Source: Promethearchaeota archaeon (GTDB taxonomy: Archaea; Asgardarchaeota; Odinarchaeia; Odinarchaeales; JBHLKK01). Taken from it: a stretch of 32,000 nucleotides of DNA. The notes under the pieces are model-generated. The model did no database searches. It was not told the DNA's origin and saw only the letters and a list, made by a program, of their open reading frames with translations. The DNA is taken from NCBI GenBank assembly GCA_048939465.1, contig JBHLPL010000009.1, positions 308 through 32,307 of the forward strand. The letters run 5' to 3'. Positions 1,467-31,617 of this stretch are shown one piece after another (the first letter of the stretch is position 1; the number at the start of each line of letters is the position of its first letter). The position numbers and the translations under genes are program-made.

Positions 1467-1770
1467 ATGGATGAGGAAGCGGACGAGAAGGTAAATCAAG
1501 CAATGACAGTATTAGGCATGATAGCTGAAGATACCTCTGTCCCCAGAAACATCAGACGTGCAGCAAATGAGGCTACTGATGCACTTCAAGACTCCAAGAT
1601 TGAAAGTATGGCTGTGAGGGCATCAAATGCGATATCGATTCTCGACGAGGTATCTCAAGATCCAATCCGTTAAGAGTGTCCTCTTGGCGGGGATAAACTG
1701 CCCCTTACACGCCAGAACAAAAATATGGAATGTAGTGAGCATACTTGAAACCGTCAAAGACTATGAATAG
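1467..1770 (+). CDS. UPF0147 family protein, intron-containing: join(1467..1665,1697..1770), 90 aa
   Basis: Exon 1 has EDTSVPRNIRRAA...RASNAISILDEVSQDP. The unspliced frame stops at TAA 1671. Removing 1666-1696 gives [26 protein letters not shown], the expected family C-terminus. SD-like GAGGT upstream. Confidence 0.9.
1666..1696 (+). other. 31-nt BHB intron in UPF0147 mRNA
   Basis: Central helix ATCC(1660-63)/GGAT(1691-94); 3-nt bulges AAT(1664-66) and AAA(1695-97); intron stem CCGTTAAGAG/CTCTTGGCGG (10 bp, 2 GU) with TGTC loop. Cutting after the 2nd nt of each bulge restores the frame. Confidence 0.88.
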
Positions 1771-1970: not shown

Positions 1971-2152
1971 GCCGGGGTAGCCAAGTGGTCTACGGCGCTG
2001 GCCTCGAGAGCAGCTAACATAAAAGGAAGAATACATAAAAGACAACGGAAATCCTTTGGGACAGATTGAACAAGAAAGTCAGTGACGCAGTAGCGTCTCG
2101 CGGGTTCGAATCGGCGCTACATTACGCCGCGAGAATCCTGCCCCCGGCGCCA
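1971..2152 (+). tRNA. tRNA-Ser(CGA) with two introns (37/38: 2009-2076, 68 nt; 59/60: 2111-2135, 25 nt), CCA encoded
   Basis: Acceptor GCCGGGG/CCCCGGC; D arm GCC/GGC; anticodon stem CTGGC/GTCAG with CT-CGA-GA; long variable arm GACGC-AGTA-GCGTC; T arm GCGGG-TTCGAAT-CCTGC after removing a well-formed BHB intron (H TTCG/CGAG with one GU, bulges AAT/AAT, stem CGGCG/CGCCG). Confidence 0.93.
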
Positions 2153-3462: not shown

Positions 3463-3753
3463 ACTATTCCTCTCCTGTCGAAGGAGCTTATGACTATGCT
3501 AGACCTCAATTCCCGAGCGGGCTTTGGTTCCGGTACACGCCAAATCAGGGGGCAGTTTACATCGTCCCAGCCCACTAGTCCCCATATAACGTCGGGGTTT
3601 ATAGTTTATTTCACACATCTTCCCCACAGGTCGGTGACCGTTTCCGCGTCAGAGAGGGGTGCGCCTTTAGATATTTCAGCAAATATATAACAAACGTATT
3701 TGAAGGCCACTAAATTCCTCTCCTCCCTTTCGGACGGATTCTCCTTGAGGTGG
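3459..3753. repeat. por-associated ~300-nt element, copy A (porD-porA spacer)
   Basis: Shares AAGGAG(C/T)TTATGACTATG, GCCAAATCAGGGG, CGTCCCAGCCCA, AACGTATTT and TGAGGTGGTT with copy B; collinear. Confidence 0.85.
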
Positions 3754-3758
3754 TTCAA

Positions 3759-6775: not shown

Positions 6776-7336
6776 TTACCCAAGAACGTATCCAATTTGT
6801 TTGACAAGTTCACGACGTTCTTTGCGTTGATCGTCTGTTTCTATTCTTTTCACAGATTGTCCGTCCACAAAGCCCAATACTGCACGGCCTTCCACACCAT
6901 TGATGCCCACTTCTGCGACTATTACCTTGCAGCGATTCGCAGTTGCGCCGTAGACTATCGCGACATGTGGTAATAGCTTGATACTATTTAGAACATTAAT
7001 CGGCCATGCTCCCTGAATCATGATTACAAATACATGACTTGCCCCGATATTTCTGCAGTTTTCAGCCGTCAATTGCTCTAGTTCGGGGTCGTTACTATTG
7101 ACACGGGTAAGTCTGGGATCTGCTTCATTCATTGCACAAGCAAACTTCACATCACCAGTAGTTACTCCCGGAACTGACATCTGAATGGTCCGGAAGAGGT
7201 CGTCAACAAGTTTTACTGAGAAATTGGGGTCCCTCTACCTCTTGTATTGATCTTAAAGGGATTTCCCCTGTCCGACAATTATCTGATGCTCGGGTTCCTT
7301 CTTAATGTCTATTGAAATGAGTTTTATTTCGCTCAA
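6776..7336 (-). CDS. Adenosine-specific kinase family (DUF355-like) protein, intron-containing: complement(join(6776..7223,7263..7336)), 173 aa
   Basis: SD AAGGAGG then TTG 7336: MSEIKLISIDIKKEPEHQIIVGQG|NFSVKLVDDLFRTIQMSVPG...NEADPRL...GAWPINVLNSIK...ATAN...GRAVLGFVDG...RRELVKQIGY. The ORF track captures only the exon 2 part. Confidence 0.88.
7224..7262 (-). other. 39-nt BHB intron in adenosine-specific kinase family mRNA
   Basis: Minus strand: helix GGGG/CCCC, bulges AAA and AAT, intron stem TCCCTTTA/TAGAGGGA (8 bp, 1 GU). Contains in-frame TAA and TAG; splicing yields GQGNFS. Confidence 0.9.
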
Positions 7337-31041: not shown

Positions 31042-31617
31042 CTAAAGGTTGACTTGCGCTGCAAAATAATATGTCGTTTCTCCTTGTCTATCTACAACAC
31101 CGAGAACGAGCCTTTTCCTAGAACTTGTTGCCGCTTTTATTATCTTCTCCAGGCTTGACAATTCTAAAGGTACTCCTTCAACCACAACATGTATGAGGTA
31201 TTTCGCCACGTCTTCATTCAAAACCGCTCCTCTTTCATAAACCCGAAAATCAACTCCGCTCCCATACCCAAGACGTACTATGTATCCTCTGCTTCGCAGA
31301 TCCCGATACACAAGATATTTCGTCCATATCCTTGGGTCCACTTCTAATGTGCTTTTTAGGATACCCTGGAAGTCAAGCTCCTGTTTATTCTCATCAAAAA
31401 CTCTAAGCCTTCTCCGTTCCATAAGCAGTAGAGCCTCTACTATTTCAAGATTCAGCTTGTCCTCCTCCAGGATGCTTCCATAATAGCCAGCCTCATAAGT
31501 TGATGTTGCCTTTTCACCACTCACAATTACGCTATTGTCAACTAATACGCCTTCAACGATCTCTTCCTCTTCCAACTTTTTCCCCGCCTGAAGGTCTTGT
31601 TTCATCTTTGGAACCAC
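31042..31617 (-). CDS. endA: tRNA-splicing endonuclease subunit (probably structural beta-type)
   Basis: GYYG...L..VEALLL, YLVYRDLRSRGY, G.DFRVY, RKRLVLGVVD...TYY. The catalytic His expected before YL is absent (EDVAKYL). Confidence 0.85.
   Translation of the reverse strand: MVPKMKQDLQAGKKLEEEEIVEGVLVDNSVIVSGEKATSTYEAGYYGSILEEDKLNLEIVEALLLMERRRLRVFDENKQELDFQGILKSTLEVDPRIWTKYLVYRDLRSRGYIVRLGYGSGVDFRVYERGAVLNEDVAKYLIHVVVEGVPLELSSLEKIIKAATSSRKRLVLGVVDRQGETTYYFAAQVNL

Follow-up and report, generated by a model that had tools for sequence, protein, structure and literature searches.

Positions 1666–1696 of the window (the whole 32,000-nt stretch of DNA analyzed here) most probably form a tRNA-type bulge-helix-bulge (BHB) intron in the coding sequence of a UPF0147 gene, which would be cut by the endonuclease EndA and joined by RtcB, a reading to which we assign a probability of roughly 87%. 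What we observed directly is the motif, how it is placed relative to the reading frame, how it is conserved and covaries among relatives, the selection acting on the downstream exon, and the presence of the enzymes. The window belongs to the genome of an Odin-related Asgard MAG (hereafter G000; 1.96 Mb in 152 contigs, estimated to be 91% complete), and this lineage appears to splice mRNAs with its tRNA-splicing enzymes. For more than 20 years the only accepted BHB intron in an archaeal coding sequence has been that of crenarchaeal cbf5, to which a case in a Haloferax 5′ UTR can be added (PMC7714728, PMC10485636), and these were the only 2 archaeal mRNA cases found in the searchable literature. 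The reading of the element in the initial annotation of the locus, which placed known mRNA BHB introns mainly in crenarchaeal cbf5 and in DPANN predictions, is supported; the host here is an Asgard archaeon and neither a crenarchaeon nor a DPANN archaeon.

The UPF0147 gene starts with an ATG at position 1467, approximately 10 nt downstream of a Shine-Dalgarno-like GAGGU motif. In the unspliced frame the protein reads MDEEADEK...AISILDEVSQDPIR, ...EVSQDPIR and terminates at the TAA codon 1671–1673, so that unspliced RNA would yield only a 68-aa product without the last helix. The conserved C-terminus of the family is encoded in a second frame, which is open from position 1627, resumes at position 1697, and ends with the TAG codon 1768–1770 (Table 1). 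Both the premature stop after DPIR and the conserved tail in another frame 31 nt later had been described in the initial annotation and were found exactly where it had placed them. Joining the exons produces the sequence GAU CCA A + AC UGC, which encodes D P N C, meaning that the insert splits an invariant Asn codon; this is precisely the junction that the same annotation had derived by placing a cut behind the second nucleotide of both bulges. The predicted spliced product is a full-length protein of 90 aa. Whereas the unspliced ORF matched the PF03685 profile from position 2 to 61 with 76.8 bits, the joined pieces (with an X at the break) matched positions 2–81 of 81 with 114.8 bits, above the curated cut-off of 23.6, so that the spliced product covers the family profile over its full length. 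When the genome was searched in six frames with the same profile, 2 separate half-matches (2–61 and 61–81) were returned in different frames. In addition, the joined product aligned without interruption to the solved UPF0147 structures 2qzg (residues 7–87, E = 6e-20) and 2qsb. Public gene calls gave the 68-aa product in 7/7 cluster members, as was to be expected from the earlier suggestion that annotation would truncate the gene; these members are 7 distinct sequences from NCBI, ENA, JGI, and Logan assemblies.

Table 1. Positions and supporting evidence for the interrupted UPF0147 gene, the elements of its BHB motif, and the other features discussed in the text.
Feature	Position	Strand	Description	Evidence
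UPF0147 exon 1	1467..1665	+	66 full codons plus A1665, first base of the split Asn codon	ORF list, sequence, PF03685 positions 2–61
Predicted BHB intron	1666..1696	+	31 nt; third 5′-bulge base, 10-bp hairpin, GGAU, first two 3′-bulge bases; in-frame TAA 1671–1673	fold, covariation, strain variants
UPF0147 exon 2	1697..1770	+	second and third bases of the Asn codon, 23 codons, TAG 1768–1770	restored Pfam positions 61–81; synonymous changes in spliced frame only
Central helix	1660–1663 / 1691–1694	+	4 bp, AUCC/GGAU	MFE fold
5′ bulge	1664–1666	+	AAU; predicted cut after second base, A1665	
Inner stem	1667–1676 / 1681–1690	+	10 bp	MFE fold
Loop	1677–1680	+	UGUC	MFE fold
3′ bulge	1695–1697	+	AAA; predicted cut after second base, A1696	
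Outer helix	A1658-U1699, G1659-C1698	+	only 2 bp	MFE fold
Distal helix	1647–1650 / 1703–1706	+	GAGG/CCUU, beyond internal loop	
EndA paralogue	31042..31617	-	191 aa	PF01974 match; alignment to M. jannaschii EndA, PDB 1a79
Adenosine-specific kinase, predicted intron	7224–7262	-	39 nt	PF04008 across junction, 1–153 of 154
kae1/TsaD, predicted intron			25 nt	one Pfam match across junction, 12–264 of 264, 276 bits
Class-III aminotransferase, predicted intron			30 nt	Aminotran_3 across junction, profile 9–355 of 403, one stretch
aIF5B-like GTPase, predicted intron			29 nt	GTP_EFTU across junction, profile 5–185 of 188, one stretch
Glycine-cleavage P protein, predicted intron			29 nt	GDC-P across junction, profile 4–377 of 429, one stretch
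AdoHcy hydrolase, predicted intron			32 nt	weak AdoHcyase match (27.6 bits) over junction; AdoHcyase_NAD begins just after

The structure of the insert was analyzed by computing the minimum-free-energy (MFE) fold of positions 1645–1712. Every base pair of the canonical BHB drawn in the initial annotation (a 4-bp ATCC/GGAT helix, two 3-nt bulges, a 10-bp stem, and a 2-bp exon-side helix) was recovered in this fold. The motif has the hBHBh′ geometry, with a 4-bp central helix, 3-nt bulges on opposite strands, and flanking helices of at least 2 bp on both sides; we class it as slightly relaxed hBHBh′, with an outer helix at the 2-bp minimum and weaker than that of the strict motif. The 5′ strand of the outer and central helices (1658..1663, + strand) consists entirely of coding bases of exon 1. 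When the surrounding 121 nt were shuffled, BHB motifs whose inner stem reached at least 10 bp were obtained in 0/5000 sequences, and motifs whose stem reached at least 8 bp, anywhere in the segment, in 3/5000. The overall fold energy of the locus is unexceptional (z = -1.64). The significance of the structure derives from the fact that the BHB geometry sits exactly on the positions that restore the frame.

We infer from these features that the transcript is cleaved and ligated and that a spliced mRNA and its protein are produced. The pre-mRNA would fold so that bases 1658–1663 of exon 1 pair with bases 1691–1699 of the intron and exon 2, the intron itself forming the 10-bp hairpin. EndA, probably as an (alpha-beta)2 enzyme built from both paralogues of this genome, would then cut after A1665 and A1696, RtcB would join the exons and probably circularize the 31-nt intron, and the mature mRNA would be translated into the 90-aa full-length UPF0147 protein. 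A point against splicing is that transcription and translation are coupled in Archaea, so that the motif could face competition from ribosomes while it folds. RNA runs were sought both for the locus and for the gene alone; none was listed, and the runs that matched were DNA contigs.

A profile search with PF01974 identified 2 EndA paralogues in the G000 genome. The paralogue encoded in the window has a Val at the position of the catalytic His when aligned to the M. jannaschii enzyme, and is likely a structural (beta-type) subunit. In the second one, encoded on contig G000:C90, Tyr, His, and Lys residues are aligned with the catalytic residues of the M. jannaschii protein (VYEHG...DHS...RKK). 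The sequence pattern, with one putative catalytic and one putative structural subunit, fits an (alpha-beta)2 heterotetramer of the broad-specificity type, which the 2 paralogues may form. The genome also contains 2 RtcB genes. One of them (G000:C31:2961-5708, - strand) is a single frame of 973 aa in which the RtcB profile match is split between positions 57 and 45 by an in-frame insert of approximately 1.4 kb, a putative intein.

To place the interruption among relatives, 400 Asgard genomes were searched with PF03685, which produced a match in 365. UPF0147 is split at the 1666 site in G000, in 2 congeners (G001 and G002), and in G012, which belongs to another family. The insert is 31 nt long in G001 and G002 and 29 nt long in G012, where it interrupts the same codon. 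The stem sequence of G012 is largely different from that of G000, and its central helix reads ACCC/GGGU where G000 has AUCC/GGAU; the synonymous change from GAU to GAC at exon position 1661 is compensated by an A to G change in the intron. In 4 Odinarchaeota (G003–G006) a single in-frame stop was found inside a longer match, and a 27-nt BHB insert lies 9 codons downstream of the first site (HARTK^IW). This insert has a GCAC/GUGU central helix, 2 AAA bulges, and an 8-bp stem, and applying the same cut rule to it restores the frame exactly. The other UPF0147 matches seen among the 400 genomes were uninterrupted; double matches in G102, G187, G201, G210, and G232, considered as candidate split genes, proved on re-examination to be full-length paralogues. 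The 270-nt UPF0147 gene carries 2 intron sites across lineages, one of them common to 2 families. As the initial annotation had proposed, the locus can be aligned to intron-less orthologues: across Archaea 77/80 orthologous loci are uninterrupted and read DPN(M/C/I)PxHxRTxIW, which is the sequence given by the splice, and the segment downstream of the junction is conserved. In the 4 sequences that share the site, 93.5% of the cells are paired, compared with 40–50% when the partners are slid, a sample in which 3 of the 4 genomes are closely related and for which shuffle controls reached the observed score in 25/500. Both partners have changed in three pairs, of which one belongs to the central helix.

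Differences among the exon 2 sequences were then scored in each frame. Relative to G000, the spliced frame contains 4 synonymous and 0 non-synonymous differences in G001, 5 and 0 in G002, and 12 and 2 in G012, and in the other 2 frames nearly all of these differences are non-synonymous. This indicates that exon 2 is under purifying selection, and in the spliced frame only, which is the strongest argument against 2 alternative readings of the insert. According to one of them, EndA cuts the RNA but productive joining does not follow, so that the motif would serve for regulatory cleavage, for decay, or as a route to the 68-aa protein, and exon 2 would stay untranslated. Cleavage of this type has been described for yeast TSEN acting on mRNAs (PMC10485636), and no junction RNA has been seen at the UPF0147 locus; however, exon 2 encodes the conserved C-terminus of the family, its substitution pattern reflects selection in a frame that is reached only by splicing, and RtcB is present in the genome. 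We regard cleavage without ligation as improbable. The other reading is that the gene is a pseudogene, or a truncation tolerated after the chance insertion of a palindrome, its resemblance to a BHB being coincidental. Gene callers do report the 68-aa ORF, and low-stringency motifs that resemble a BHB are frequent in this genome (65,145 loose matches). Nevertheless, the same interruption occurs in another family as well as in 3 congeneric species, with exon 2 intact and conserved, substitutions in the stem keep the pairing, the cuts restore the frame to the exact residue, and at least 6 other housekeeping genes show the same design, which together make a pseudogene very unlikely. The maintenance of the stem is also visible among strains, in which the variants 1667 C>T, 1668 C>T, 1686 G>A, and 1687 G>A all preserve pairing and the remaining variants at the insert fall in the loop or the closing pair.

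Splicing by EndA and RtcB was also weighed against translational recoding, in which the ribosome would hop over the hairpin, as in phage T4 gene 60, or shift frame, and the RNA would not be processed. The hairpin is stable and the stop codon lies 2 codons after the take-off region, an arrangement that is loosely bypass-like. However, no matching take-off and landing codons produce DPNC: hopping from GAU 1659–1661 to GAU 1692–1694 would give D-K-L-P in the wrong frame, and the insert falls inside the conserved Asn codon. Moreover, the insert of the Odinarchaeota differs in sequence and in site and still has the same BHB geometry, which fits an enzyme that recognizes RNA structure and not a ribosomal signal. 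The probability of recoding is very low. An assembly or sequencing artefact, which might be suspected in a MAG of 152 contigs, is hardly credible given that contigs from 4 independent studies (mangrove and other sediment metagenomes) span positions 1400–1850 and run through the insert with neither an indel nor a joint, and that the 68-aa gene calls come from 7 distinct sequences in different assemblies.

Inserts of the same type were found in other genes of G000. Six genes, listed in Table 1, have a Pfam match at the predicted junction, and in a radical-SAM gene (contig C127) splicing regains the CxxxCxxC motif in the absence of a Pfam match, for which reason this gene was counted as motif-only. 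Together with UPF0147 these make 8 inserts with one geometry: 4-bp helix, 3-nt bulge cut after the second base, hairpin, 4-bp helix, and 3-nt bulge. The insert in the adenosine-specific kinase gene, which is located in the window, contains 2 in-frame stop codons (TAA and TAG) and has a GGGG/CCCC helix, AAA and AAU bulges, and an 8-bp stem; the spliced sequence would read GQG-N-FSV, and the PF04008 match grows from 19–153 to 1–153 of 154. At least 7 genes of G000 are predicted in this way to carry BHB introns, with support that is gene by gene and not statistical. The view of the initial annotation that UPF0147 needs tRNA-type splicing is supported from several sides, namely the restored Pfam match, the DPN motif, the covariation, the selection on exon 2, the co-occurrence of EndA and RtcB, and these further genes.

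Genome-wide blind scans for frame-restoring BHB motifs were performed with strict and relaxed motif definitions, using ORF fusion and dicodon coding potential as filters, to which one of the runs added a 'start-less exon 2' rule. The counts were never above those of controls with a 3′ cut displaced by 1 or 2 nt. False positives at gene boundaries dominated the scans and the controls were contaminated by real hairpins. Because the scans were not enriched over the controls, they do not show how many coding-sequence introns the genome has in all. One candidate, C33:6638, was rejected as an intron because it corresponds to the boundary between 2 genes (dsDNA_bind and MarR), and for another, C151:7102, no Pfam match was obtained. 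Searches with short peptides for introns in pyrG, EF-2, and DRG returned no match or non-specific matches only. Within the AdoHcy hydrolase gene, a second frame-shifting insert of approximately 28 nt was observed between GGCEE and TTTGV at 480–520 of locus L133 (G000:C118, - strand), 34 codons upstream of the 32-nt intron. Parsed by hand, it forms a good hairpin with a UGCG/CGUA helix, but the cut that restores the frame lies off the canonical bulge position and it was rejected as a canonical BHB.

We compared the UPF0147 intron with the known systems that it most resembles. The closest is the BHB intron of the cbf5 pre-mRNA in Crenarchaeota (Watanabe et al. 2002; Yoshinari et al. 2006; Yokobori et al. 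2009, PMC2738675). Like the intron of this pseudouridine synthase gene, that of UPF0147 is a short coding-sequence intron with a somewhat relaxed BHB and a putative substrate of the tRNA-splicing endonuclease; the hosts of the cbf5 intron have a hetero-oligomeric (alpha-beta)2 EndA, of the type that is predicted here, and its distribution among relatives is similarly patchy, with gain and loss. It differs from the cbf5 case in the gene (UPF0147) and in the phylum (Asgard, Odin-related), as well as in having introns at 2 sites across lineages and in occurring in a genome with several other interrupted genes, where cbf5 itself is uninterrupted. The BHB intron in the 5′ UTR of Haloferax volcanii HVO_1309 (PMC7714728) offers a parallel for an mRNA substrate of EndA outside tRNA and rRNA, a status that UPF0147 would share. 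However, the Haloferax intron is located in an untranslated leader and is processed in a host with an alpha2 enzyme (PMC7714728), whereas that of UPF0147 splits a codon of the coding sequence, so that the protein would require splicing. Geometry and cut positions are identical to those of archaeal pre-tRNA introns, including many non-canonical Asgard ones (PMC11291895; bioRxiv 10.64898/2026.10.13.758758), and the enzymes are presumably the same. In contrast to pre-tRNA introns, the host RNA here is a messenger and half of the motif consists of codons, because of which the helix must coexist with coding constraints. There is also a likeness to the IRE1/RtcB splicing of HAC1/XBP1 in eukaryotes, which is independent of the spliceosome, relies on a protein enzyme, and removes a short mRNA intron with a change of frame at the C-terminus. 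In that system the endonuclease is IRE1, the motif consists of 2 stem-loops, and RtcB performs the ligation in metazoa. Since neither its endonuclease (which is not EndA/TSEN) nor its motif is shared, the relationship is one of functional analogy only and not of membership. Literature searches combining Asgard archaea or Odinarchaeum with BHB or introns returned tRNA and rRNA work only, and those on UPF0147 returned nothing relevant.

What is new in the present case is a well-supported coding-sequence intron in another gene and in Asgard archaea, with comparative evidence from 3 lineages and 2 insertion sites, and with at least 6 further interrupted genes in the same genome. A broader proposal is that the Odin-related lineage routinely splices its mRNAs with tRNA enzymes, with dozens of housekeeping genes carrying BHB micro-introns of 22–39 nt that were gained repeatedly, and with the expression of many core proteins dependent on EndA and RtcB and possibly regulated through them; we consider this tentative, with a likelihood slightly short of even. 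For annotation, the consequence is that interrupted genes are called as truncated or split, making MAG proteomes and completeness estimates wrong at such loci. How much protein is made would depend on the machinery that splices tRNAs, a possible point of control. If the proposal is true, the expression of many core proteins would be tied to EndA and RtcB in the closest prokaryotic relatives of eukaryotes. For evolution, the finding would show how introns spliced by proteins came to enter coding sequences of the lineage that is closest to eukaryotes.

Introns were also abundant in the tRNA genes of this organism. ARAGORN detected only 15 tRNA genes in the G000 genome, 12 of them with an intron; multiple or non-canonical introns have probably kept most of its tRNA genes from being detected. 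This count is consistent with the heavy load of tRNA introns described for Asgard archaea (PMC11291895). Neither ARAGORN nor Rfam found a tRNA in the window. When the sequence was read by eye, a tRNA-Ser(CGA) gene that both had missed, and whose CCA is encoded, was recognized at positions 1971–2152 (+ strand), approximately 200 nt downstream of UPF0147; it contains 2 introns, one of approximately 67 nt at the canonical 37/38 position and one of approximately 25 nt in the T-loop.

Two types of repeats were observed further downstream in the window. An inverted repeat is formed by positions 2231–2253, which pair with positions 3539–3561. A direct repeat of 65 nt is present at positions 2487–2551 and 3693–3757 (+ strand), with 78% identity between the copies, each of which closes a stretch of 290–390 nt with no obvious gene. 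The copies end at the GTG starts (2544 and 3750) of 2 genes for pyruvate:ferredoxin oxidoreductase subunits; the 65-nt sequence may represent a leader common to both or an RNA element.
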